From contig JAWBON010000041.1 in the NCBI GenBank assembly GCA_038826135.1, positions 1 through 10,277 of the forward strand: a stretch of 10,277 nt of DNA, in the 5' to 3' direction. The position numbers and the translations under genes were made by a program. The DNA is from Candidatus Odinarchaeota archaeon. Lineage in GTDB: Archaea; Asgardarchaeota; Odinarchaeia; Odinarchaeales; Odinarchaeaceae. Shown here piece by piece: positions 1-10,277 of the stretch. The notes beneath the pieces are model-generated. The model ran no database searches and was not told where the DNA came from. It was given only the letters and a program-made list of their open reading frames with translations. Within the stretch, counting starts at the first letter, position 1, and each line of letters opens with the position of its first letter.

Positions 1-1
1 A

Positions 2-73
2 GGTAAAGCTGACCCGGATATTCTGAATAAGCTTATTAGGAAAAGGCTTAGCGAAATACCTGAAACATTATAA
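2..73 (+). CDS. gatB: 3' end (partial) of a probable Asp/Glu-tRNA amidotransferase subunit B (GatB; GatE less likely)
   Basis: Manual translation of frame 2 gives GKADPDILNKLIRKRLSEIPETL*, with stop TAA at 71-73. GKADPxxxNxL is the typical C-terminal GatB/YqeY helix motif. Only 23 residues are visible. Confidence 0.6.
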   Translation, partial: GKADPDILNKLIRKRLSEIPETL

Positions 74-118
74 CACTCCTAGGTAACCTTAAAAATTAAT
101 AATAATAATTTATTACTG

Positions 119-874
119 GTGATTTTTTTGGAGCGCGAGGTTGAGATTAACGAGAACGCTAAGATACCTGAATCCCCTATAATTCTTCTAGGGTTACCGG
201 ATACTGGTCTTGTAGGTGTTATAGCTACTGCTCACATATTAGAGATTAATAAACCGAAGTATTTAGGTTCAATCGACTCTATATATTTCCCTCCAATGAT
301 CGTCATCCATAACGGGGAGATAATGGCTCCTGTTAGAATATACGGTCAAGGCAGCATAGTATCACTTATATCCGAGATCACTTTACCCGTGAACGGTATG
401 GATAAGATTGTAGATGCCATAGTATCCTGGTTGCAGGAGAAAAAACCACGCCTCGTCCTTTTCCTAGGTGGTATACCCGCCCCTAACAGGATGGAGCTTG
501 AAAGATCAACCTGCTACGCTGTGCCTACAAGCTCTGAACTTGTTAAACAAGTAGAAGAGTTGAATATACCCCGGCTGCTAGAGGGTTTAATGGTTGGACC
601 GTACGCTCTTCTGTTAAAAGAGTGTAAAAAGAAGGGGATTCCCTCTATAGCTCTTTTAAGCGAATCATATGCTAATTACCCTGATCCAGGTGCAGCTGCC
701 TCTGTGATAGAAACACTGAATAAAATAATTGATTTAAATGTTGAAATTGAAAGTTTACTGAAGAAAGCTGATGAGATTAGAATAAATATGAGAGATTTAA
801 TGAGACGGACCGCTAAAGAGATGAAGCAAGCTGAAAAATCCAGGGAATATGAGCTACCTCCACTATATATGTAG
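119..874 (+). CDS. PAC2-family proteasome assembly chaperone / PbaB-like proteasome activator
   Basis: Motifs IILLGLPDTGLVGVIAT, YLGSIDSIYFPP, LVLFLGG, MVGPYALLL, YPDPGAAA and a helical C-terminus ending LYM (HbYX). GGTGA at 118-122 could be the RBS for an in-frame TTG at 128-130, which may be the true start. Confidence 0.9.
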   Translation: MIFLEREVEINENAKIPESPIILLGLPDTGLVGVIATAHILEINKPKYLGSIDSIYFPPMIVIHNGEIMAPVRIYGQGSIVSLISEITLPVNGMDKIVDAIVSWLQEKKPRLVLFLGGIPAPNRMELERSTCYAVPTSSELVKQVEELNIPRLLEGLMVGPYALLLKECKKKGIPSIALLSESYANYPDPGAAASVIETLNKIIDLNVEIESLLKKADEIRINMRDLMRRTAKEMKQAEKSREYELPPLYM

Positions 875-876
875 GG

Positions 877-1335
877 GTGTTAGACGTGTCTAATGATGAA
901 TATTATGGTTTAGATGAATACATTGATAAGATTTTACAGAGACTGAGAAGACAGATGGATAGAGCTCTCCCGCTAGCTGATTTATCAATGGAATCCAGCT
1001 GGGATATTGAAGAAGGATGTATGGAGCCCCTCTTCCAGTTACAGGAGAAAGAGAATGAGATTGTTGTAAGCGCTGATCTCCCCTTAGTTAAGAAGGAAAG
1101 CATTAAAATAAAAGCTGATGAGCAGACAGTTGAAATATCGGCTGAGACTGTTAAAGAAATAGCGTTCGATAAATGGTGGGCTTCTCAGCGTAAAAAAGCA
1201 TTCTGTCGTTTCCATAAGAAAATAACTTTACCAACTAAAATAATACCTGAAGAGGCGAAAGCCTGTTTTAAAAACGGTATACTTATATTAACTCTTCCAA
1301 AGAAGAAGCGCGTTTTTGAAATAAAAGTTGAGTAA
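877..1335 (+). CDS. Small heat-shock protein (Hsp20/alpha-crystallin family)
   Basis: Alpha-crystallin core EIVVSADLPLVKKESIKI...FHKKITLPTKIIPEEAKACFKNGILILTLPK and C-terminal I-x-V (IKVE). It starts 2 nt after the PAC2 stop. AGGGGTG at 873-879 may be the RBS for an in-frame GTG at 886. Confidence 0.9.
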   Translation: MLDVSNDEYYGLDEYIDKILQRLRRQMDRALPLADLSMESSWDIEEGCMEPLFQLQEKENEIVVSADLPLVKKESIKIKADEQTVEISAETVKEIAFDKWWASQRKKAFCRFHKKITLPTKIIPEEAKACFKNGILILTLPKKKRVFEIKVE

Positions 1336-1344
1336 AACAATATT

Positions 1345-1410
1345 ACATTTTAAGAAAAACTAAAAATAAATAAAAGATTTGGAAAGGGTTAAAAACCCCG
1401 TTTTAACGGT
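1345..1410 (-). terminator. Putative terminator region between convergent hsp20 and aor
   Basis: After the aor stop the minus strand reads a short stem CCGT-TAAA-ACGG, then GGTTTTT, AACCCTTTCC and T-rich TCTTTTATTTATTTTT. Confidence 0.4.
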
Positions 1411-3270
1411 TTAAAGTTTATCTAAGCCTAATTCCTTGAGTTTTTCCTCTGATGGTATGCCCTTCGGCCAGCCTTTAACTTTGAAGTACTCTTCTCTCAT
1501 CTCTTTCAAAGGCGGTACTAAGCCAGCCGCTCCACCAGCTTTTCTAGCTGTGAAGAATCTCTTCGGTAGCCAGTAGTCTCTCTCCGGGACTAGACCGTGC
1601 TTTATATTGAACATGTTCATTAATGTGACTATTCTCTCACCGACTTTAAGCAGATCCTGTGGGGTCATATTCCACCCTGTGACAGCGTTAGTTAAATTCG
1701 TTATTCTTGTGAAATTATATCCTGAAAACTCGTAGAAGAAGCAGAATACTAGTGAGTTAGCTACAGCCATTCTATCCTGGTATTTCGCAGCTGCAAGACC
1801 CTTCAGTTTAGTGTCGTGTGGATCCATAGGCTTACTTAATTGAGGTCCAGCTTCAGGGAAGGTGACTCCCAACTCTATAGCTTCTGGGAAGCCGTGCAGG
1901 TGGCTCGCACCCTTCATAGAAGTCGCTGTCTCAACAGCCATAGACATGAATGCGCGTGGATCATGTGCTGGTACCACTGCGCCGTTGACGTGAAGCGCCA
2001 GATCAGGGCAGCCTAGTTTTTCACCAGCAGGTCTTACACCTTCACCTAGTAAGGTTGGTATTTTACCTTTTCTATGAGCTATGTCTTCTAAGAGTCTTAG
2101 CATGGCATCCCCGTCACCCCATTTAAGCTCGTAGCCTAGGTCGGCCTTCTTGATATAGCCTTTCTCATAAGCTTCCATCGCAAAAGCGCAGACTCCACCG
2201 AACTCTATGGTGTCGATACTGTACCTGTTACATAACTCGTTCGCTTTGTTTATCGCTAGAAGGTTATCTATCAAGCAGTCTGATCCAATCATTGCCAGTG
2301 TCTCATATTCAGGACCGTAGCTGTCCATAGCGTATTTTTCAGGTGTCTTCATGGTCACTCTTCTATGGCATCCCATTATACAATTTGAACACGCGTCTGG
2401 TTTAGGTTTAAGAACCTTGTTGAATTCACCGCCAGCTGAACCTATTTTCTTAGCGCCCTCAATCCAACGGGACTCTAAGAAGTTTTTAATCGGCAGCAGA
2501 CCGTTTTCCTCTCTAGGTATCACAGCCATAGCCTGGCCCTCTTCACGGTTAGCTTTAGTGAAATCCGCTTTCTTAGCGTCTTCAGTAGCTTCTTTTCTAA
2601 GCTGAGCAAGCTCATCCGGTCTCGCTATTGGGACCTTCTTAGTTCCTCTGAAGGCTAAAGCTTTCAGTTTCTTTGAACCCATGACAGCTCCCATGCCTGT
2701 TCTACCAGCACAGCCGTGCCCGTAGTTGCAGATTAGACCAGCGTATCTTACAAGGTTCTCTGCAGCAGGCCCTATGGGCGCTACTTGTATTTTATCATCT
2801 TTCAACTCTTTTTTTATAGCATCCTCAGTCTGGTAGGCGTCTAGTTTACCCCACATGTGAGAAGCGTCTTTAATCTCAGCTTTACCATCGCTTACAAACA
2901 CATAGACCGGCTTAGCCGACTTACCTTTAACAACTATTGCGTCAAACCCTGTTTTCTTAAATTCCTCAGAGTTATAGCCCCCTCCTAAAGACTCCCCGAA
3001 TATACCTGTTAAAGGAGACTTCGCGCATGCTGAAAAACGTCCACTTCCAAGTATAGCGGAACCACCCTGCCATGGACCTGTTGCGAAAACGAACACATTA
3101 TCCGGTCCGAGTGGATCAGCACCCGCAGGGATCTCCTTATACATTATATAGGCTGCTAACCCTGTTCCGCCCAGAAACTTCTTGTACACATCCTCAGGGA
3201 TATCTCTGGTTTTAATTTTATGGTTTGTAAGATCTACTTCAAGTATCTTTCCCCAATATCCACCAGCCAT
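1411..3270 (-). CDS. aor: Tungsten-containing aldehyde:ferredoxin oxidoreductase (AOR family)
   Basis: 619 aa with GYWGKILEVDL, FLGGTGLA, KSPLTG, AGRTGMGAVMGSKKLKA, a [4Fe-4S] cysteine set C294-x2-C297-x3-C301 plus C510, GPEYET, HDPR and GASH. RBS GGGAGGT lies 6 nt before the ATG. The exact AOR subfamily and substrate are not determinable. Confidence 0.92.
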   Translation of the reverse strand: MAGGYWGKILEVDLTNHKIKTRDIPEDVYKKFLGGTGLAAYIMYKEIPAGADPLGPDNVFVFATGPWQGGSAILGSGRFSACAKSPLTGIFGESLGGGYNSEEFKKTGFDAIVVKGKSAKPVYVFVSDGKAEIKDASHMWGKLDAYQTEDAIKKELKDDKIQVAPIGPAAENLVRYAGLICNYGHGCAGRTGMGAVMGSKKLKALAFRGTKKVPIARPDELAQLRKEATEDAKKADFTKANREEGQAMAVIPREENGLLPIKNFLESRWIEGAKKIGSAGGEFNKVLKPKPDACSNCIMGCHRRVTMKTPEKYAMDSYGPEYETLAMIGSDCLIDNLLAINKANELCNRYSIDTIEFGGVCAFAMEAYEKGYIKKADLGYELKWGDGDAMLRLLEDIAHRKGKIPTLLGEGVRPAGEKLGCPDLALHVNGAVVPAHDPRAFMSMAVETATSMKGASHLHGFPEAIELGVTFPEAGPQLSKPMDPHDTKLKGLAAAKYQDRMAVANSLVFCFFYEFSGYNFTRITNLTNAVTGWNMTPQDLLKVGERIVTLMNMFNIKHGLVPERDYWLPKRFFTARKAGGAAGLVPPLKEMREEYFKVKGWPKGIPSEEKLKELGLDKL

Positions 3271-3323
3271 AGTTTAACCTCCCGCCGATTAATCGAACGG
3301 TAAATATAATTTTATTATTAATT

Positions 3324-3340
3324 ATATATATATGTTTTTG
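3324..3340 (-). promoter_or_regulatory. Putative BRE + TATA promoter of aor
   Basis: Minus strand reads CAAAAAC-ATATATATAT about 55 nt upstream of the aor ATG. The region is very AT-rich, so placement is uncertain. Confidence 0.45.
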
Positions 3341-3415
3341 TAAAAAAATTACTTAAACATACATATATTTAATTTTTTAAACTAATCTCTAAATGATTAA
3401 AATATACATTCCGTG

Positions 3416-3432
3416 TTAAAAACTTTTAAATA
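3416..3432 (+). promoter_or_regulatory. Putative BRE + TATA promoter of the class-III PLP enzyme gene
   Basis: A-rich TTAAAAAC followed by TTTAAATA (3425-3432), about 55 nt before ATG 3486. Confidence 0.5.
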
Positions 3433-3476
3433 ATACTTATCCTAGTAAATAATATTTGCCTAAATAATTTTTAAAG

Positions 3477-4838
3477 GTGAGATTTATGGTGAAAATGACA
3501 ACAGAGCAAGCTATCGAAAAATCTAAGAAATGGTGCCTTCACGGCTGGGGTTTCATACCCATAGCTGTAGAATCTGCTAAAGGAGCTATATTCAAAGACT
3601 TGAATGGAAAGGAATACTTAGATTTCCTATCTCAGACCGCGGGCGTCCTAGGTATAGGTCACACACATCCGAAAATGGTTGCAGCTGTTAAAGAACAGCT
3701 TGAAAAAATACAGCACGTTCTGACAGGGTTCGTTATTCCAAGTCGTGCTGAATTCGGTGAGAAACTCGCCGCTGTAGCTCCACCCCCGCTGACAAACAAT
3801 TGCATGATGTATATTGCATGCGGTGGGTCAGAGGCTAACGAGACTGCGTTAAAAATGGCGATGTTAATAACCGGTAAGAAAGAGGTTATATCACAATATC
3901 ACGCATACCACGGTGGAACACTTGCTTTAATGGGCTTGTTAGCGCAAGCACCGCATAGAAAAGGCTTCCTAAGATACCCTGGTTTCCACAACATACCTGC
4001 TACCCCCTACTGTTACAGATGTTATCAAGGTAAAAAATACCCTGACTGCGATCATGAGTGTGCAAGACAGTTAGAATACCACTTAAAGTGGGGTGTTGAA
4101 GAAGACTCTGTAGCCGCGTTCATACAGGAACCGATAACTGGTAACGGCGGTCACATGGGTCCGAACGACAACAATCATAAGAAGGAACCTGATAAAGTAT
4201 ATCACAAAATAATCAGAGAAACATGTAACAAATACAATGTGCTATATATAAGCGATGAAGTCCAGTGTGGTATGGGTAGAATGGGTAAGAACTGGGGCTG
4301 CATGGTTTACGACATGAAACCGGACATATTCACAACAGCTAAAGCCCTAGGTGGAGGCCTGCCTGTTTCAGCAGCGGTAATCCGCAAAGACCTTGTACCT
4401 GAGAAAATGAAGGAAGCCCAGTGGCATATATTCACTATGGGTGGCAGTCCGATAACAATGGCTGCCGGCATAGCAGCGCTAGACGTTTTAGTTGAAGAGA
4501 GACTGGCTGAAAAAGCTAAGACTCAGGGCGAGAGAATGTACAAGGTTCTGAAAGAATGGGAGAACACTCACAAAATAGTCGGCGAAGTCCGCGGTGAGGG
4601 CTTATTCATCGGAATAGAGCTTGTAAAAGACAAGAAATCTAAGGAGAAAGCTATAGACGCGGCTGGCGCGGTCTTCTCAAAATGCTTAGAGAAAGGTCTA
4701 CTGCTAGGTGTCTCCGCAGTAGGCGGATGGGGTAACGTATTGAAACTAAAGCCTCCTCTAGCAATACCCAACGATCAGGCTGACAAAGGTCTGGCTATAA
4801 TAGAGGAAGCGATCAAAGAAGTCGCGAAGAACATGTAA
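3477..4838 (+). CDS. Class-III PLP-dependent enzyme (aminotransferase-III fold); possibly a phospho-lyase rather than a transaminase
   Basis: Motifs GKEYLDF, GSEANETALKMA, YHAYHGGT, FIQEPITG, ISDEVQCGMGRMG and PDIFTTAKALGGG (PLP lysine K289). The C-terminal NVLKLKPP replaces the usual NVIRxxPP. The likely start is ATG 3486, with RBS AGGTGA at 3475-3480. Confidence 0.9.
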   Translation: MRFMVKMTTEQAIEKSKKWCLHGWGFIPIAVESAKGAIFKDLNGKEYLDFLSQTAGVLGIGHTHPKMVAAVKEQLEKIQHVLTGFVIPSRAEFGEKLAAVAPPPLTNNCMMYIACGGSEANETALKMAMLITGKKEVISQYHAYHGGTLALMGLLAQAPHRKGFLRYPGFHNIPATPYCYRCYQGKKYPDCDHECARQLEYHLKWGVEEDSVAAFIQEPITGNGGHMGPNDNNHKKEPDKVYHKIIRETCNKYNVLYISDEVQCGMGRMGKNWGCMVYDMKPDIFTTAKALGGGLPVSAAVIRKDLVPEKMKEAQWHIFTMGGSPITMAAGIAALDVLVEERLAEKAKTQGERMYKVLKEWENTHKIVGEVRGEGLFIGIELVKDKKSKEKAIDAAGAVFSKCLEKGLLLGVSAVGGWGNVLKLKPPLAIPNDQADKGLAIIEEAIKEVAKNM

Positions 4839-4843
4839 ACAAT

Positions 4844-4859
4844 CCCCTCTATTTTTTTT
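4844..4859 (+). terminator. Oligo-T terminator of the class-III PLP enzyme gene
   Basis: CCCCTCTA-T8, 5 nt after the stop codon. Confidence 0.6.
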
Positions 4860-4974
4860 AAATTTTAATCTATTTTTCAATTTATTTAGAAAAGTAAATA
4901 TTAAAACAAGTTTTCCACTTATCGAGGAGATGTTAACCTAGAGTTTTCTGTAAACTTTTAATAATAAAAATTAT

Positions 4975-4990
4975 AAAAAAATAGAGAGAA
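4975..4990 (-). terminator. Oligo-T terminator of the gldA-like gene
   Basis: Minus strand TTCTCTCTA-T7, 3 nt after the stop codon. Confidence 0.6.
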
Positions 4991-4993
4991 ATT

Positions 4994-6118
4994 TTAATGT
5001 TCGCAACCGCACTTCTCATGGTATTCTGTACCGATAGCATCAGTTGCTAAAATAGCATCTTTAACCAGCTGAGGTGTTATATTCAGCGGCATATTGCCCA
5101 TCGTGTCATGTGGATCGCATGCTTTCTCAGCTGCTTTCATAAGATCGTTTTCACTGACAGCCCCTATACCGAGCTCTTTTAATGTTATCGGTAGACCCAG
5201 CTCATGCACCCAGCTGACGATACTCTCCACCTCTTCAGGAGCTCTGCCTTCAAGTATCAGTTGAGTTATAGTACAGTAAGCTACAAGTTGACCATGCTCC
5301 ACGTGGAGGCCTGGCACGATTGTTAAACCGTTATGTGTAGCATGAGCTGCAGCTAGACCTGAGCTTTCGAATCCGAGGCAGCTTAGTAATTTAACAGATT
5401 CAATTATTTTCTCTACAGCTGGTGTAAGCAACTGTTTTTTAGCATCCTTCGCTGCCTGTACACCGTAAGTCATGAGGTTTTCGAAGCATAAATGTGTTAA
5501 AGCCACAGCGGCTGCGGTTGATCTTCCTCCTGGTATATTTTTAGCATTCGGTTGAGCTGCGCACGCGTCAGCTTCGAACATACAAGCTAAAGCGTCCCCC
5601 ATACCCCATGTTATAAATTGAGGAGGCGCTTTCGCTAATATCTCTGAATCCACTAAAACTAGGTCAGGGTTCTTTGGATGGAATAAGTATTCGACAAACT
5701 GGTGTTTCTCCGTATATACTACTGATAAACCGCTCGCATCAGCGTTAGTCGCGCACTGTGTTGGCACTGTTACAACACTAGCTTTCATCTTAACAGCTAC
5801 CGCTTTAGCTGTATCCGCTGATTTACCGCCGCCGATTCCAATAACTATGTCGGCTTTGGACTCTTTTCCGATAGATACGAGTTTATTTATCGTGTCATGG
5901 GTGCACTCTTTAACAGTTGGGTCTTTGTGAACAACTTCCACACCGTTCTTTTTTAGACTTTCAGTGATTATATCCCCTGTCACTTTCATAGCTGTAGGGC
6001 CGCCGAATATCACGGCTCTCTTACCTAGTAGTTTAACCTGTTCCCCTATCTTATATATTGCTCCACGGCCTTGAACATATCTGCTTGGAGATACGAGTAT
6101 TTTCGGCACTTCGACCAT
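4994..6118 (-). CDS. gldA: Glycerol dehydrogenase-family (GldA-like) metal-dependent alcohol dehydrogenase
   Basis: Motifs SPSRYVQGRGA, GIGGGKSADTAKA, VPT, GMGDAL (D175), ESSGLAAAHATHNGLT (H259) and HG (H275); the metal ligands are spaced as in GldA. RBS GAGGTG lies 7 nt before the ATG. The substrate-site motif deviates, so the symbol denotes family rather than proven function. Confidence 0.8.
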   Translation of the reverse strand: MVEVPKILVSPSRYVQGRGAIYKIGEQVKLLGKRAVIFGGPTAMKVTGDIITESLKKNGVEVVHKDPTVKECTHDTINKLVSIGKESKADIVIGIGGGKSADTAKAVAVKMKASVVTVPTQCATNADASGLSVVYTEKHQFVEYLFHPKNPDLVLVDSEILAKAPPQFITWGMGDALACMFEADACAAQPNAKNIPGGRSTAAAVALTHLCFENLMTYGVQAAKDAKKQLLTPAVEKIIESVKLLSCLGFESSGLAAAHATHNGLTIVPGLHVEHGQLVAYCTITQLILEGRAPEEVESIVSWVHELGLPITLKELGIGAVSENDLMKAAEKACDPHDTMGNMPLNITPQLVKDAILATDAIGTEYHEKCGCEH

Positions 6119-6216
6119 TTAGTCACACCTCTTTTTTATTAGATTCAGCCCGGGATCTTCATTTTAAATAATTTTTAAGCCGTTTTTTCAGATCCCTTAA
6201 TTAACCTTATTTATTG

Positions 6217-6226
6217 TTATATATAA
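6217..6226 (-). promoter_or_regulatory. Putative TATA box of the gldA-like gene
   Basis: TTATATATAA preceded on the minus strand by AAAGCAACAA; this implies a leader of roughly 75-80 nt. Confidence 0.4.
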
Positions 6227-6254
6227 TTGTTGCTTTAATTTTACAGCGATAATA

Positions 6255-6284
6255 TATTTTTTATAATAAATATTATAAAAAATA
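6255..6284. repeat. Perfect 14-bp inverted repeat with a 2-nt spacer in the divergent gldA/permease promoter region
   Basis: TATTTTTTATAATA-AA-TATTATAAAAAATA, read directly from the sequence. Confidence 0.85.
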
Positions 6285-6290
6285 AAAATA

Positions 6291-6308
6291 ACCAAAACTA
6301 TTTATATC
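6291..6308 (+). promoter_or_regulatory. Putative BRE + TATA promoter of the APC permease
   Basis: ACCAAAACTA followed by TTTATATC (6301-6308), about 55 nt upstream of ATG 6360. Confidence 0.5.
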
Positions 6309-6359
6309 ACCGAATCTAAAGTAATAAATTAAAATCTCTAAAATTAGGAGAAACCTAGA

Positions 6360-8027
6360 ATGGCAACTGAGAAGGAAGTCTTCATTAGGAAGGCCTCAGG
6401 TCTAACTAGGGTTATAAGCGCGTGGGATGCGTTAATATACGCATTCTGCAACCCTGGCATACTATACTGTATGCTATATATAACCTGGGGTCCTTGGGGT
6501 GTCGGTCCAGGTGCTGATATGCCATGGGCGGTAGTAACAGTCTTCATGCTCTTGCCTATTCAAGCACTCTACTGGTTGTTCTCGGTTAGCATGCCCAGAA
6601 GTGGTGGCGAATACTTATATGTCAGTAGGATAATCAGTCCCGCATTCGGTTTATTCGCTTCATGGACCTTAACAATCGTTGGCATGTCTTGGACAGGCCA
6701 ATGCACAACCTGGATGATAAACTACGGTATAGGTGGCATGTTCCTGAACGGGGGTATTCTCGCACGGGATGTAGGCCTTCTAAACATTGGTAACATATTA
6801 GGTGATACAAGTCTTATCCAATATGGTGGTACCCCATATACCGCTGCAATAATCTCAGTAATAGCAACAATATCTCTCATATCGACATTCTATATAATGT
6901 ACCGTGGTGCTAAAGCCTCTATGAGACTAAGCTGGATCTGCTCAGCTATAGCTACAGTGGGTCTTCTATGCTTCGTAGCTATCGCATGGACTTCAGGTGA
7001 AACAGTGTTCGTAAACAATGTGAACACGATCTGGAGTGACCCGACGATTCAATCAAGCGGATACTTCGCATACACTAACTATGCTGCGTATATAACAGAT
7101 GTTATAGCCGCAGGGTACCCAGGTCACCCTGAACTTATAGGTACAATATTCGCTGGAACAGCTTATGTGAACCTTAACACTTTAGGATCCACATATACTA
7201 CAAGCGCTGCTGGAGAGATTAAAGGAGTCTCATTCGCTCAAGGATTAGCTCTACTCGGTTCAATAATAATGTTCATGGGTTACTGGGAGCTCTTCTACGC
7301 TTCAGCCTACGTTGGCTGCGGCTCAGACTTCTGGTGGGGTATAGCTTATGCCGAAAATGGTGGAATAGACTATGCTGCTTTCGGTACAATGGCTAACGGT
7401 ATTACGGTAGCCCCCTACCTGTCAGATAATCCATTCCTAGTATGGATGGTTGCATTCGGCTTCGTTGCAGCCACCTATGGTAGTGTACTGGGAATGTCCT
7501 TCGGACCCGTCAGAAACATGTTCGCATGGTCATTTGACGGTGTTTTACCGAACTGGTGGAACAAAGTTGACAGAAGAGGCTCACCATGGGTATCCGTCAT
7601 GGCTGGTTGTATAATCGCATGGGCGTTCATGATGCTCTACACATGGACTTCACTGCTTTACTTGATTCTATGGACGATAACAGTATGGTTCATCGGCTGG
7701 ATAATCGTAGGCATAGCCGGTATGATATTCCCGTACAGGAGAAAGGACATCTTCGAGAAATCACCCGAACTAGTTAAGAAGAGAGTCGCCGGACTTCCTG
7801 TAGTAACCATACTAGGCGCGTTAACCACAGGCATCAGCGTGTTCACCGTATGGGTTACACTGGCCCCCTCATTCGTATACGGTTGGGGTCTTGATCCTCT
7901 CTCACTGGGTGGTACAGTCCTATTCTTAGTAGTATGCCCGTTCGTGTTATACTACGCTGCCTACTTCTACAGGAAGAGTAAAGGCGTTCCCATGGACCTG
8001 AGGTTTAAGGAGATACCTCCTGACTAA
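6360..8027 (+). CDS. APC-superfamily amino acid/amine permease
   Basis: About 12 hydrophobic segments by eye; N-terminal FIRKASGLTRVISAWDA, SMPRSGGEYLYVSR, AGEIK, RNMFAWSFDGVLP and C-terminal FKEIPPD, typical of archaeal APC permeases. RBS AGGAG at 6346-6350. Confidence 0.9.
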   Translation: MATEKEVFIRKASGLTRVISAWDALIYAFCNPGILYCMLYITWGPWGVGPGADMPWAVVTVFMLLPIQALYWLFSVSMPRSGGEYLYVSRIISPAFGLFASWTLTIVGMSWTGQCTTWMINYGIGGMFLNGGILARDVGLLNIGNILGDTSLIQYGGTPYTAAIISVIATISLISTFYIMYRGAKASMRLSWICSAIATVGLLCFVAIAWTSGETVFVNNVNTIWSDPTIQSSGYFAYTNYAAYITDVIAAGYPGHPELIGTIFAGTAYVNLNTLGSTYTTSAAGEIKGVSFAQGLALLGSIIMFMGYWELFYASAYVGCGSDFWWGIAYAENGGIDYAAFGTMANGITVAPYLSDNPFLVWMVAFGFVAATYGSVLGMSFGPVRNMFAWSFDGVLPNWWNKVDRRGSPWVSVMAGCIIAWAFMMLYTWTSLLYLILWTITVWFIGWIIVGIAGMIFPYRRKDIFEKSPELVKKRVAGLPVVTILGALTTGISVFTVWVTLAPSFVYGWGLDPLSLGGTVLFLVVCPFVLYYAAYFYRKSKGVPMDLRFKEIPPD

Positions 8028-8028
8028 A

Positions 8029-8049
8029 CCCTCTGTTTTTATTTTTTTT
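8029..8049 (+). terminator. Oligo-T terminator of the APC permease
   Basis: CCCTCTG-T5-A-T8, 1 nt after the stop codon. Confidence 0.6.
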
Positions 8050-8141
8050 ATTTTAATCTTTAACAAGTTAATTTTATAAGCCAATCAAAAAAGTCATCCA
8101 AATTTTTATAGCGCTATTTTTATATTTAATCCCCTTTTTCG

Positions 8142-8157
8142 CGAAATACTTAAATAT
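8142..8157 (+). promoter_or_regulatory. Putative BRE + TATA promoter of the phosphoesterase-nucleotidyltransferase pair
   Basis: CGAAATAC followed by TTAAATAT (8150-8157), downstream of the permease terminator. Confidence 0.5.
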
Positions 8158-8171
8158 ACTGTAAAAATAAT

Positions 8172-9164
8172 ATGATGCAAAAAGTGAAGGTTGGTGTGAA
8201 ATTAATGGTAAAAACAAGATTGTTTTTCGCAACAGATGTGCACGGTTCGGAAGTATGTTTTAGAAAATTCCTTAACGCGGGTAAATTCTACGGTGTTAAA
8301 ACATTGATATTAGGCGGTGATATAACTGGGAAGATGATCGTCCCCGTTGTTAAAAAAGAGGGTGGCGTATATGAGGCTAAATACTACGGTACAGTTCATA
8401 AGGCTAAGTCTGAGGATGAGTTAAATAAGCTTAAAAGACTCATTCGCGACGGTGGCTTCTACCCGTTTATAACGACAGAGGACGAGATGAAGGAGCTTGC
8501 TAGTAAAAACGTTAACGTCGACGAAATCTTCAAAGACCTAGTTCTAGACACACTTAGAGGATGGGTTAAATTAGCTGAGGAGAGGTTGAAGCCTGAAGGT
8601 ATAAAACTATACATGACAGGCGGCAACGATGACATAGCTGAAATATCAGATATTTTAAGAAGCTCCGATTATATCATAGATCCTGAGGGAACTGTTGTTA
8701 ACATTGACGGTGAACATGAGATGGTAAGCACCGGGTATTCGAATATAACACCTTGGAAATGTCCGAGAGATATAGGTGACGATGAACTTTGGAAAATAAT
8801 TGAGAAAATGCTTAAAGAAGTTAAAGATATGAAGAAAGCGATATTCAACTTTCACGTTCCACCCTACGATGTCCCACCACTCGACTCAGCCCCAGAACTT
8901 GATGAAACCCTTAAACCAATAATGGAAGGAGGCTCAGGGTTAAAGATGATACCTGTGGGTAGTAAAGCTGTTAGAAGAGCTATCGACGAATATCAGCCGC
9001 TTCTAGGTTTACACGGCCATATACATGAAGGCAAAGGCGCTATAACAGTTGGGCGGACACTATGCGTTAACCCTGGCAGTGAGTATGGTGAAGGTATATT
9101 AAGAGGTGTGCTAGTAACAATTGATAAAGATCAGGTAAAAGAATACTTGTTCACGTCTGGTTAA
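8172..9164 (+). CDS. Calcineurin-like metallophosphoesterase (Icc-related)
   Basis: All five motifs are present: TDVHG, GGDITG, GGNDD, FHVPP and GHIHE, followed by NPGSEY. The likely start is ATG 8205 (RBS GGTG at 8193-8196), since the TATA box at 8150-8157 would place transcription start downstream of ATG 8172. Confidence 0.9.
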   Translation: MMQKVKVGVKLMVKTRLFFATDVHGSEVCFRKFLNAGKFYGVKTLILGGDITGKMIVPVVKKEGGVYEAKYYGTVHKAKSEDELNKLKRLIRDGGFYPFITTEDEMKELASKNVNVDEIFKDLVLDTLRGWVKLAEERLKPEGIKLYMTGGNDDIAEISDILRSSDYIIDPEGTVVNIDGEHEMVSTGYSNITPWKCPRDIGDDELWKIIEKMLKEVKDMKKAIFNFHVPPYDVPPLDSAPELDETLKPIMEGGSGLKMIPVGSKAVRRAIDEYQPLLGLHGHIHEGKGAITVGRTLCVNPGSEYGEGILRGVLVTIDKDQVKEYLFTSG

Positions 9165-9189
9165 ATCTTAAAAATAAAATTAACGGAGT

Positions 9190-10020
9190 GTGACCTATAT
9201 GTCATCTGACGAAGCGATTTTAGGTGAGGCTTTGAGATTAATCGATGCAGCTGAGAAAGAGGGAATAATACTGAGAATAATCGGAGCTGCAGCGGTTAGA
9301 CTGAAATGCGTTGACTTCAGAGAGCTTCACAAATCATTCAGGCAGTTAACTGACGTAGATTATATGTCTTATTGGAAATATGAGAGAAAGGTTGACGAAT
9401 TCCTTGAAAAACAGGGATATGCACCTTTACGTTCAGCTGTAACACCGGGTCTATTCGTAGGTAGACGCGTTTACAATGATAAAACCGGTCAGAACAGAGC
9501 GCATATAGACGTATTCTTCGACGAATTAGATATGTGCCATAAAGTCGACTTTCGTGGAAGGCTTGAAATAGATAAGCCTACAATATCAGTAACAGACCTG
9601 GTTTTAGAGAAAATGCAGATTGTTGAAATAAATGAGAAAGACATAAAAGATCTTTGCATAATATTCGCTCAGTTCCCGCTCTCCGAAAAGGATGAGCCGA
9701 ACAGTATAAACAAGAAGTATATCGCAAAAATACTAGCTAAGGAATGGGGTTTCTGGTATACTTTAACAACTAATCTGGATAAAGTTAGAAAATTCATAGA
9801 AAAATACACTCAGCAGGGAATTTTCAACGAACAGCATAAGGCGACAGTTCTGCAGAGAACCCAGGAATTGCGTGAAGCAATAGATAAGGAAGGTAAGAGC
9901 TTCGGTTGGAAGATGAGAGCTAAAGTTGGAACAAAGAAGATCTGGTATAATCCAGTCGGCGAGGTTGAGAGGGCGCCTCACTTAGAGGAATATAAGCCGA
10001 AAGAATATCGGCAAGATTAA
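9190..10020 (+). CDS. Uncharacterised protein with Pol-beta-superfamily nucleotidyltransferase-like motifs
   Basis: hhGxxAV (IIGAAAV, G32), D-x-D (TDVD, D55/D57), third acidic strand (HIDVF, D107) and K141...KDxxD (K150-D151-x-x-D154). The likely start is ATG 9199, with RBS GGAGTG at 9185-9190. The reading frame is solid; the fold call is by motif recognition only. Confidence 0.65.
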   Translation: MTYMSSDEAILGEALRLIDAAEKEGIILRIIGAAAVRLKCVDFRELHKSFRQLTDVDYMSYWKYERKVDEFLEKQGYAPLRSAVTPGLFVGRRVYNDKTGQNRAHIDVFFDELDMCHKVDFRGRLEIDKPTISVTDLVLEKMQIVEINEKDIKDLCIIFAQFPLSEKDEPNSINKKYIAKILAKEWGFWYTLTTNLDKVRKFIEKYTQQGIFNEQHKATVLQRTQELREAIDKEGKSFGWKMRAKVGTKKIWYNPVGEVERAPHLEEYKPKEYRQD

Positions 10021-10021
10021 A

Positions 10022-10041
10022 CCCTCTTTTTTATCATTTTT
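10022..10041 (+). terminator. Oligo-T terminator of the phosphoesterase-nucleotidyltransferase unit
   Basis: CCCTCTTTTTT-ATCA-TTTTT, 1 nt after the stop codon. Confidence 0.6.
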
Positions 10042-10103
10042 ATAGGCTGTGATGATTTTATCCCCGTTTGACTTTAAGATGATTTTTGAGGAACCGTCTG
10101 AGC

Positions 10104-10277
10104 CTAATCTTTACTGAAATACTGGTCCAGTTTAGATTGAGGTTGCCTTCTACTAATTTCACTAATCCGTGTTAAAGCAGATTTAACACGGTCTAAAGAG
10201 AAATCGTGTTTCACATGGAGTAATTCAATTATCTGATCAGATTTAGGCTCACCCCAGAAAAGGGTATACTCCCTAGT
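10104..10277 (-). CDS. fen: 3' end (partial) of flap endonuclease-1
   Basis: Manual translation of the minus strand gives TREYTLFWGEPKSDQIIELLHVKHDFSLDRVKSALTRISEISRRQPQSKLDQYFSKD*. It shows the FEN-1 W-x-E-P and HDFSxDRV motifs and a PCNA-interacting PIP box QSKLDQYF (10116-10139). Stop TAG at 10104-10106. Confidence 0.88.
   Translation of the reverse strand, partial: TREYTLFWGEPKSDQIIELLHVKHDFSLDRVKSALTRISEISRRQPQSKLDQYFSKD

Follow-up and report, generated by a model that had tools for sequence, protein, structure and literature searches.

A predicted nucleotidyltransferase of an Odinarchaeota archaeon belongs to a conserved unit with a metallophosphoesterase and an APC-superfamily permease

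We analyzed a stretch of DNA from a Candidatus Odinarchaeota archaeon (assembly GCA_038826135.1, contig JAWBON010000041.1, positions 1–10,277 of the forward strand), which over its full length of 10,277 nucleotides is referred to below as the window. Toward its right-hand end lies an open reading frame (ORF) with the motifs of a nucleotidyltransferase (NTase), which an earlier note, made from the sequence without database searches, had described as an orphan of the AbiEii/MenT branch of the Pol-beta NTases. The genes directly upstream, on the same strand, encode a metallophosphoesterase (MPE) and a permease of the APC superfamily (Table 1). We found that the NTase is a member of a conserved unit made up of these three genes.

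Table 1. Positions of the features of the window; the three-gene unit and its elements are listed first
Feature	Position	Strand	Description
APC-superfamily permease	6360-8027	+	555 aa; Pfam AA_permease_2 9e-12; C-terminal tail ...RFKEIPPD
Metallophosphoesterase (MPE)	8172-9164	+	330 aa from ATG 8172; likely start ATG 8205, 319 aa
GGAG, Shine-Dalgarno-like element	9185-9188	+	10 nt before ATG 9199; spacing suits ATG 9199, not GTG 9190
NTase ORF	9190-10020	+	Open frame, 276 aa from GTG 9190; 273 aa from ATG 9199 (9199-10020, probable gene); TAA stop 10018-10020
Motif I, IIGAAAV, putative hG[G/S/A] nucleotide-binding loop	9277-9297	+	Strand beta1, G32, and helix start in the model; aligns with GGT of genuine AbiEii
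Motif II, T54-D55-V56-D57, predicted metal-binding aspartates	9349-9360	+	Strand 55-60; aligns with AbiEii S-x-D-l-D
HIDVFFD, predicted third carboxylate D107 with conserved F109 and D111	9502-9522	+	Strand 105-110; aligns with the AbiEii K-V-D-I strand
Motifs III/IV, L139-E-K141-M-Q143-IVEINE-K150-D151-I-K-D154	9604-9651	+	Helices 134-142 and 149-161; aligns with AbiEii eK...RDlyD with a 2-residue gap
C-terminal basic/Trp-rich signature, G-K236-S-F-G-W240-K-M-R243-A-K-V-G247-T-K-K-I-W252-Y253	9892-9948	+	Family-specific; helix 238-249 in the model
Two oligo-T runs (T6, T5)	10027-10041	+	Candidate archaeal terminator
AOR	1411-3270	-	
Class-III PLP enzyme	3477-4838	+	
GldA-like dehydrogenase	4994-6118	-	NCBIfam glycerol dehydrogenase 8e-122, glycolaldehyde reductase 1e-105

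Residues of the NTase are numbered here from the GTG at 9190, as in the earlier note. The true start is probably the ATG at 9199, which would lower every residue number by 3; we prefer it because the close homologues all start with MSSDE and because of the position of the GGAG element, and the family profile match in this genome also begins at 9199. The motifs that the earlier note had listed (IIGAAAV with G32, RQLTDVD with D55 and D57, HIDVFFD with D107, and LEK141 followed by K150-D151-I-K-D154) were all found where it had placed them, and on the DNA D55 is read from GAC at 9352–9354 and D57 from GAT at 9358–9360. Scans of the protein against Pfam, NCBIfam, and PADLOC returned nothing significant. 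Archaeal transcription is generally known to terminate at oligo-T runs, and the two runs just past the stop codon would on this ground close the MPE-NTase unit.

We collected 80 loci encoding NTase relatives from the contigs of one genome per species and clustered the neighboring ORFs; linkage was counted with tblastn, since ORF calling fails in high-GC loci. Two neighbors were hugely recurrent, and they proved to be homologues of the MPE and the permease of the window. The MPE was present in 67 of the 80 loci and lay no more than 300 bp from the NTase in 49, and a permease homologue was found by tblastn in 53, with further cases added by the clustering. Both flanks reached 2.5 kb or more in 53 of the loci; of these, 47 had the MPE, 39 had the permease, and 38 had both. 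Identity to the proteins of the window is 39–48% for the NTase, 36–58% for the MPE, and 22–40% for the permease. The order and orientation of the three genes vary, with about 20 different arrangements seen, and the trio is found in Asgard archaea, Bathyarchaeia, Thermococci, Nitrososphaeria, Chloroflexota, Actinomycetota, Alphaproteobacteria, Planctomycetota, and Caldisericota. The association persists across so many arrangements and lineages that it must therefore have been kept by selection and is not a matter of inherited synteny.

The link between the NTase and the MPE is particularly close. In the window the MPE gene ends at 9164 and the NTase frame starts at 9190 or 9199, and in a Planctomycetota metagenome-assembled genome (MAG; locus L015) the two proteins are encoded as a single in-frame protein of 581 aa. 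A search for longer relatives returned 13 clusters of NTase-MPE fusions (572–581 aa) and no other NTase architecture. Among 61 related Asgard genomes, 29 encoded both the NTase and a full-length MPE, 2 (76% and 84% complete) encoded the MPE only, none encoded the NTase only, and 30 encoded neither; the copy numbers of the two genes track each other in these genomes, at 7/7, 5/5, and 4/4. The trio is also present in a cultured haloarchaeon, Halobellus limi, on a 398-kb replicon (locus L127, NZ_CP031312.1 382277–389795), where RefSeq annotates an IclR protein, an iron-containing alcohol dehydrogenase (Fe-ADH), an aldehyde dehydrogenase (ALDH), a metallophosphoesterase, a “hypothetical protein,” and an APC permease; the NTase is WP_160113950.1 and the MPE is WP_103992469.1. 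The earlier description of the NTase as an orphan thus does not hold, because the adjoining genes encode partners that are conserved across two domains of life and, in the case of the MPE, can be fused to it.

A second NTase paralogue lies elsewhere in the same genome (G000), on contig C16 at 23623–24422 (ORFs 1411–1743 and 1740–2210 of locus L003). It is about 40% identical to the NTase of the window and has a canonical glycine loop, GGLA, and it is split over two frames at the contig end. Three genomes of the same genus have the corresponding gene in one uninterrupted frame (244–273 aa), and the split reflects either a frameshift or assembly error or a recent pseudogene. No MPE or permease gene stands alongside this paralogue; MoaD/ThiS-like and aminopeptidase-like ORFs lie upstream of it.

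The NTase family is large. We found 1,228 relatives in a database clustered at 90% identity and, in an exhaustive HMMER search, 1,749 family representatives at 50% identity. The closest relatives come from Odinarchaeia MAGs (69–93% identity), followed by proteins from Hodarchaeota, Bathyarchaeia, Chloroflexota, and Actinomycetota. The key residues named in the earlier note show little or no variation in up to 93 sequences. In 40 homologues with 40–93% identity, R29, G32, D55, D57, R92, D107, H117, K141, Q143, K150, D151, and D154 are invariant, and in a wider alignment of 93 sequences, with identities as low as about 30%, the invariant residues are D55, D57, H117, K141, Q143, W186, R243, G247, and W252. 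Other positions of the catalytic motifs vary little in the larger set: G32 is kept in 90 sequences, position 107 is Asp in 87 and Glu in 6, position 150 is Lys in 83 and Arg in 7, and F109, D111, D151, and D154 are kept in 84, 83, 90, and 92, respectively. The C-terminal signature is also conserved (K236 in 92, W240 and Y253 in 91 each, and R243, G247, and W252 in all 93), and there are conserved acidic residues outside the catalytic triad (D111, D128, E149, and D185). Judged from these alignments, the motif set goes far beyond what chance would produce.

The alignments also bear on two peculiarities that the earlier note had pointed out. The GAA glycine loop is real, but it is an ordinary variant of this family, as the residue after G32 is alanine in 42 sequences, glycine in 32, and serine in 17. 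The Ser/Thr two residues before the first Asp is indeed replaced: this position is L53 in the NTase of the window and, across the 93 sequences, Leu in 31, Tyr in 18, Ile in 13, Pro in 8, Val in 8, and Phe in 7.

An AlphaFold2 model of the NTase, built from the 40-sequence alignment, had a pLDDT of 90.8 and a pTM of 0.87. In the model a strand (28–31) is followed by a helix (32–39) that begins at G32, D55 and D57 lie on the strand 55–60, and D107 lies on the strand 105–110. We searched the model against 48,161 representatives of the PDB with VIA. Ten chains reached a Z score of at least 8, and the best seven, which span residues ~1–244, are all NTases: ANT(2'')-Ia (Z 11.8, root-mean-square deviation 3.4 over 154 aligned residues), MenT1 (Z 11.6, 3.5 over 173), 5uvd (Z 11.3), JHP933 (Z 10.9), TglT/MenT3 (Z 10.6), LnuA (Z 9.9), and MenT4 (Z 9.0). 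Foldseek returned the same set as its top matches. Rel/SpoT synthetase domains matched at Z 7.3–8.4 over a core of only ~105 residues. The C-terminal signature has no counterpart in the structural matches, most of which end by residue ~186–244. Searches of PDB sequences, both with the single NTase and with the profile, gave only chance matches (de novo TIM barrels and filaggrin). The structural comparison that the earlier note had proposed therefore gave an NTase fold, in the structural neighborhood that it had named. The model indicates that the protein has the fold of the Pol-beta nucleotidyltransferase superfamily, with an hG[G/S]-type loop, a DxD motif, and a third carboxylate, and the strand register and the structural alignments support the grouping of D55, D57, and D107 in space.

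We then considered to which sequence family the NTase belongs. Proteins of the DUF1814/AbiEii/MenT branch, in which the earlier note had placed it, have four conserved motifs, I–IV (PMC7450476, PMC11375011), and K189 and D211 of MenT3 are the tested equivalents of the motif III/IV residues (PMC7450476). The Pfam cut-offs are 22.5 bits for PF08843 (AbiEii) and 31.2 bits for PF14907 (NTP_transf_5). PF08843 matched neither the NTase nor anything else in the genome, and it matched only 3 of the 40 relatives, with E values of at least 0.019; genuine AbiEii proteins in other Asgard genomes score up to 136 bits with this model. An hhalign comparison of the NTase profile with 14 of the genuine Asgard AbiEii proteins gave a probability of 20% and an E value of 1.1e-3. 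The four motifs were in register, with GA paired with GGT, R-x-L-T-D-x-D with R-f-S-x-D-l-D, H-I-D-V with K-V-D-I, and EK...EKDIKD with eK...RDlyD, and L53 of the NTase stood opposite the Ser of AbiEii. With PF08843 unmatched and so low an hhalign probability, we do not retain the placement within the branch. By its sequence the NTase appears to be a distant sister of the AbiEii/MenT group, not a member, and it lacks the regulatory residue of that group.

The nearest sequence family is PF14907, which 24 of the 40 relatives match weakly (best 1.1e-6). The NTase itself has no PF14907 match, and there is none at E ≤ 0.001 in its genome. In Asgard archaea the PF14907 matches mostly fall below the cut-off and only one is strong, and hhalign against the single solid member (Neff 1) gave a probability of 1%. 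The atlas clusters of the NTase family are automatically named “nucleotidyltransferase family protein,” and PF14907 is found on 19% of their members. The NTase thus seems to belong to a large unnamed family that lies near PF14907 but outside it. PF10706 matched only 2 of the 40 relatives, with E values of at least 0.096.

The genomic context of the NTase is not that of a toxin. The earlier note had seen no adjacent helix-turn-helix (HTH) or AbiEi antitoxin gene, and we found no antitoxin-like gene, whether AbiEi/COG5340, MazE-like, or COG4861, among the recurrent neighbors in the 80 loci. As a positive control, we examined the genes directly upstream of genuine Asgard AbiEii genes, and 4 of 6 matched AbiEi Pfam models, although not all DUF1814 genes come with an antitoxin (PMC7450476). 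The family had no match in 50,697 phage records and a single match in 72,556 plasmids, on the 398-kb haloarchaeal replicon, which is non-mobilizable. T39 of MenT1 and S78 of MenT3 are phospho-acceptors, and it is through this position that the antitoxins turn the toxin off (PMC11375011); the equivalent position in the NTase family is hydrophobic. These three observations agree with the earlier note's view of the protein as a non-toxin, and we conclude from sequence and context that a toxin function is very improbable. For the module as a whole, we are highly confident that the NTase acts together with its two partners and not as a toxin.

Both partner proteins have features that bear on the function of the unit. 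The metal ligands of the MPE (D22, H24, D50, N152, H228, H283, and H285, within the motifs DxH, GD, GNDD, H, and GHxH) are invariant in 29 sequences, and its AlphaFold2 model had a pLDDT of 93.6. The nearest folds were aq_1956 (2yvt; Z 24.7, root-mean-square deviation 3.3, 235 residues aligned) and TT1561 (1uf3; Z 23.5), two Metallophos_3 proteins that were also the only sequence-level PDB match (7.9e-5); Mre11, MPPED2, and Rv0805 followed at Z 17–20 (Mre11 19–20; Rv0805 17.5). The MPE thus looks active, with an apparently intact binuclear site. PADLOC gave a weak PDC-S10 match to the MPE, over 40 residues only. The permease has weak NCBIfam matches to amino-acid and ethanolamine permeases and, by its sequence, appears to be a divergent APC member. 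The 51 module-linked permeases have conserved motifs at both cytoplasmic ends, C-terminal G542-x-d-x4-f-x-e-i-P-P and N-terminal F8-x-R10-x-a-s-G-L-x-R17.

Three further fusions of the MPE were each seen in a single record, and they could be artefacts of gene calling. One joins the MPE to the first ~80 positions of an APC permease (P0287) and is too thin to use, although if real it would argue for physical coupling. The others join a GcvT aminomethyltransferase domain to the MPE in a protein of 952 aa (P0285) and the MPE to an SMP-30/gluconolactonase domain (P0284).

Apart from the MPE and the permease, the recurrent neighbors of the NTase are metabolic and differ by lineage. In Anaerolineae the trio stands with two XylB-like FGGY kinases, a GlpA-like dehydrogenase, an Fe-ADH resembling glycerol-1-phosphate dehydrogenase, an HAD-IIA phosphatase, and a GntR protein; in Bathyarchaeia with an MttB-type methyltransferase, an F420/LLM oxidoreductase, and a BhcC-like aldolase; and in Alphaproteobacteria with a ligase resembling type III glutamine synthetase. 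The AOR, class-III PLP, and GldA-like genes of the window recur together with the trio in only a few loci (L004 and L012, and in part L049, L054, L073, L032, L066, and L079). They are lineage-specific additions and not part of the core.

Two other recurrent neighbors were noted. In 8 loci from Bathyarchaeia, Actinomycetes, and Planctomycetota, a neighbor without a Pfam or NCBIfam match is present either as two adjacent genes of ~145–170 aa or as one gene of ~300–325 aa (L024 3324–4249, minus strand; L042 2922–3866, minus; L027 8338–9293, plus; L050 7768–8745, minus; and also L074, L060, L075, and L015), and in some lineages the unit may include it as a fourth member. A protein of ~226 aa lies near the trio in 9 loci from Asgard archaea and Thermococci (L053 2362–3042, minus strand; L026, L029, L030, L032, L041, L069, L072, and L079). 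Its sole match is a weak one to DUF2207_C (predicted membrane protein), and it is absent from the window.

The window also holds genes at its two ends. At 119–1335 on the plus strand lies a gene resembling PAC2-family proteasome-assembly chaperones (3e-42), and an Hsp20 gene (3e-14) comes 2 nt after it; the pair belongs to proteostasis and is unrelated to the trio. At 10107–10277 on the minus strand, a gene convergent with the NTase runs off the contig end. The last 57 residues of its product finish ...RRQPQSKLDQYFSKD, in which a PIP-box-like motif, Q-x-x-L-x-x-Y-F, is predicted to interact with PCNA. The sequence before this motif presumably resembles the C terminus of the archaeal flap endonuclease FEN-1; the short piece present has no Pfam match.

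What might the unit do? With its motif set in place, the NTase looks catalytically competent, and it is most likely the nucleotide-adding half of a permease-dedicated NTase/phosphodiesterase pair. We infer that it would bind a nucleoside triphosphate (NTP) with Mg2+ through G32, D55, D57, and D107 and transfer the nucleoside monophosphate (NMP) to a hydroxyl acceptor, and that the binuclear MPE would hydrolyze the resulting phosphodiester. If the one enzyme adds NMP and the other removes it, the two would therefore be an add/remove pair that serves its own permease. In the mechanism that we favor, the uptake machinery (the cytoplasmic ends of the permease, or the MPE itself) would be reversibly marked by nucleotidylylation, and this mark would gate or couple uptake, by a logic like that of GlnD and GlnE built from different parts. 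We give this switch somewhat less than an even chance. A mark centered on the permease is favored because the NTase and the MPE are better conserved than the permease, because the accessory genes differ between lineages, which speaks against a pathway-specific role, and because the linked permeases have common motifs at their cytoplasmic ends. A switch is favored because the fusion of enzymes with opposite activities is characteristic of switches, as in GlnD, GlnE, and RelA/SpoT.

Several observations weigh against a mark on the permease. The 1:1:1 co-duplication of the three genes, with up to 7 sets per genome, would equally fit enzymes that act on the substrate of each permease. The nearest structures are those of small-molecule O-NTases (ANT(2'') and LnuA) and tRNA NTases (MenT), and none of these modifies a protein. 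In archaea distant from one another, alcohol and aldehyde dehydrogenase genes are repeatedly found next to the trio (the window, L004, L012, L049, and Halobellus), which hints at a transported amine substrate that bears a hydroxyl and could be modified directly by the NTase. Finally, the paralogue without an MPE in the same genus shows that the NTase family has members independent of the MPE.

The first three of these points lead to an alternative in which the NTase would O-nucleotidylylate the amino alcohol or amino polyol that the permease imports, in the way that ANT(2'') and Lnu enzymes act on aminoglycosides and lincosamides, and the MPE would cut the phosphodiester. The result would be either metabolic trapping or a costly substitute for a kinase that feeds a phospho-lyase. 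The top fold match is a small-molecule O-NTase, APC permeases carry amines, the NTase has additional conserved acids (D111, D128, E149, and D185), and strict co-duplication with the permease suits substrate-specific enzymes. GldA-like and AOR genes lie by the trio in the window, L004, and L012, as do Fe-ADH and ALDH genes in Halobellus. However, the net reaction would be futile or would amount to an expensive kinase (NTP converted to NMP or nucleoside plus pyrophosphate), the flanking catabolic genes vary by lineage while the NTase and the MPE stay conserved, and no Pfam model for small-molecule NTases matches, the few PF10706 hits among the relatives being insignificant. We regard this alternative as somewhat less likely than the switch, and of the alternatives it is the one that fares best.

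It is improbable that the pair turns over a signal nucleotide, with the NTase making and the MPE degrading a messenger that controls the permease, in analogy to RelA/SpoT and to cyclase/phosphodiesterase pairs. Fusions of synthetase and hydrolase are typical of messenger turnover, Rel/SpoT synthetase domains are among the structural matches of the NTase, and the cyclic-nucleotide phosphodiesterase Rv0805 is near the MPE. Set against this, one pair for each permease copy would be wasteful for a diffusible signal, the Rel-like matches are confined to the core and score below the ANT/MenT group, and neither Pfam nor NCBIfam detects a known messenger-binding domain on the permease. We consider it more improbable still that the NTase extends the 3′ end of tRNA or another RNA, as MenT does, and that the MPE trims it. 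Such a role would be in keeping with the three MenT proteins among the best folds, with the alignment of motifs III/IV with AbiEii, with a K/R/W-rich C-terminal segment that could bind nucleic acid, and with the Mre11/SbcD nucleases among the fold neighbors of the MPE; yet it would leave the obligate linkage to a permease and the metabolic neighborhoods unexplained, and the best matches of the MPE are aq_1956 and TT1561, not nucleases. The least probable reading is that the unit serves as a toxin-antitoxin or anti-phage system like those of AbiEii and MenT, in which the MPE would be an unusual antitoxin that works as an enzyme, and despite the MenT-like fold and motif set, the patchy, multi-copy, cross-domain distribution, and the PDC-S10 match of the MPE, we reject it on account of the lack of an AbiEi, HTH, or small-antitoxin neighbor in the 80 loci, the missing PADLOC match of the NTase, the lost phospho-acceptor, the near-absence from phages and plasmids, and the constant position of the unit amid permease and catabolic genes.

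In the literature we found no published description of the NTase family or of the permease-MPE-NTase trio, and PF14907 was found only as an “uncharacterized nucleotidyltransferase” beside a phosphonate gene. Proteins of this fold that have been characterized act mostly as toxins, as MenT and AbiEii do, or in antibiotic resistance, as ANT(2'') and Lnu do. The sister family described here has the same set of catalytic motifs and is large, with more than 1,700 clusters at 50% identity; about half of the sampled Asgard genomes encode it, as do many Bathyarchaeia, Chloroflexota, Actinomycetota, and Alphaproteobacteria. It has taken on another role, in obligate partnership with a phosphodiesterase and a nutrient permease. 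Annotation pipelines should accordingly avoid an AbiEii-like toxin label for these genes. We propose, tentatively, that each permease has its own nucleotidyl “writer” (the NTase) and “eraser” (the MPE), which would act either as a covalent switch of the permease or in an NTP-driven group translocation through the permease, with the substrate trapped as a nucleotide adduct; this would be a way of running a secondary transporter that had not been recognized before. If the pair does mark the permease or trap its substrate, this would be a new principle for the control or energization of transport in the organisms that dominate anoxic sediments, and a writer/eraser system that is widespread in energy-limited anaerobes, including the Asgard archaea. 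Halobellus limi, which is cultured and carries the module, offers a tractable host in which these proposals are directly testable.

The unit can be compared with several known systems. MenT1, MenT3, MenT4, and AbiEii (DUF1814, PF08843), which are tRNA-modifying toxins, share with the NTase the bi-lobed Pol-beta NTase fold. The NTase differs from them in that the spacing between motifs III and IV is 2 residues shorter, the position of the phospho-acceptor Ser/Thr is hydrophobic, the partners are an MPE and a permease in place of an antitoxin, the C-terminal W/K/R signature is its own, and the family is nearly absent from plasmids and phages. PF14907 is an uncharacterized family, and the NTase family lies at the edge of its model. 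ANT(2'')-Ia and LnuA, small-molecule O-NTases that confer antibiotic resistance, give the best or near-best folds and have the catalytic core in common with the NTase. Both modify a hydroxyl group of cationic amino compounds, and an acceptor of this kind would be in keeping with an APC permease as partner. Unlike them, the NTase is always paired with an MPE; it is ~100 residues longer and has an additional helical domain that is conserved, identity is 13–17%, and no resistance genes were found in the NTase neighborhoods. On the side of the MPE, aq_1956 and TT1561 are structural-genomics proteins of no known function, relative to which the MPE carries an extra insertion of ~70 residues (~55–135).

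The closest functional analogy may be with GlnD and GlnE, acting with PII-AmtB or glutamine synthetase, in which a Pol-beta-type NTase likewise has an opposing enzyme, one that takes the nucleotide off again and is either encoded alongside it or fused to it. The output of the GlnD-GlnK-AmtB system is the control of a membrane transporter. In the unit described here, the predicted remover is a calcineurin-type MPE and not an HD domain or another NTase domain, a PII protein and ACT domains are absent, and in place of a single master regulator there is one enzyme pair for each permease.

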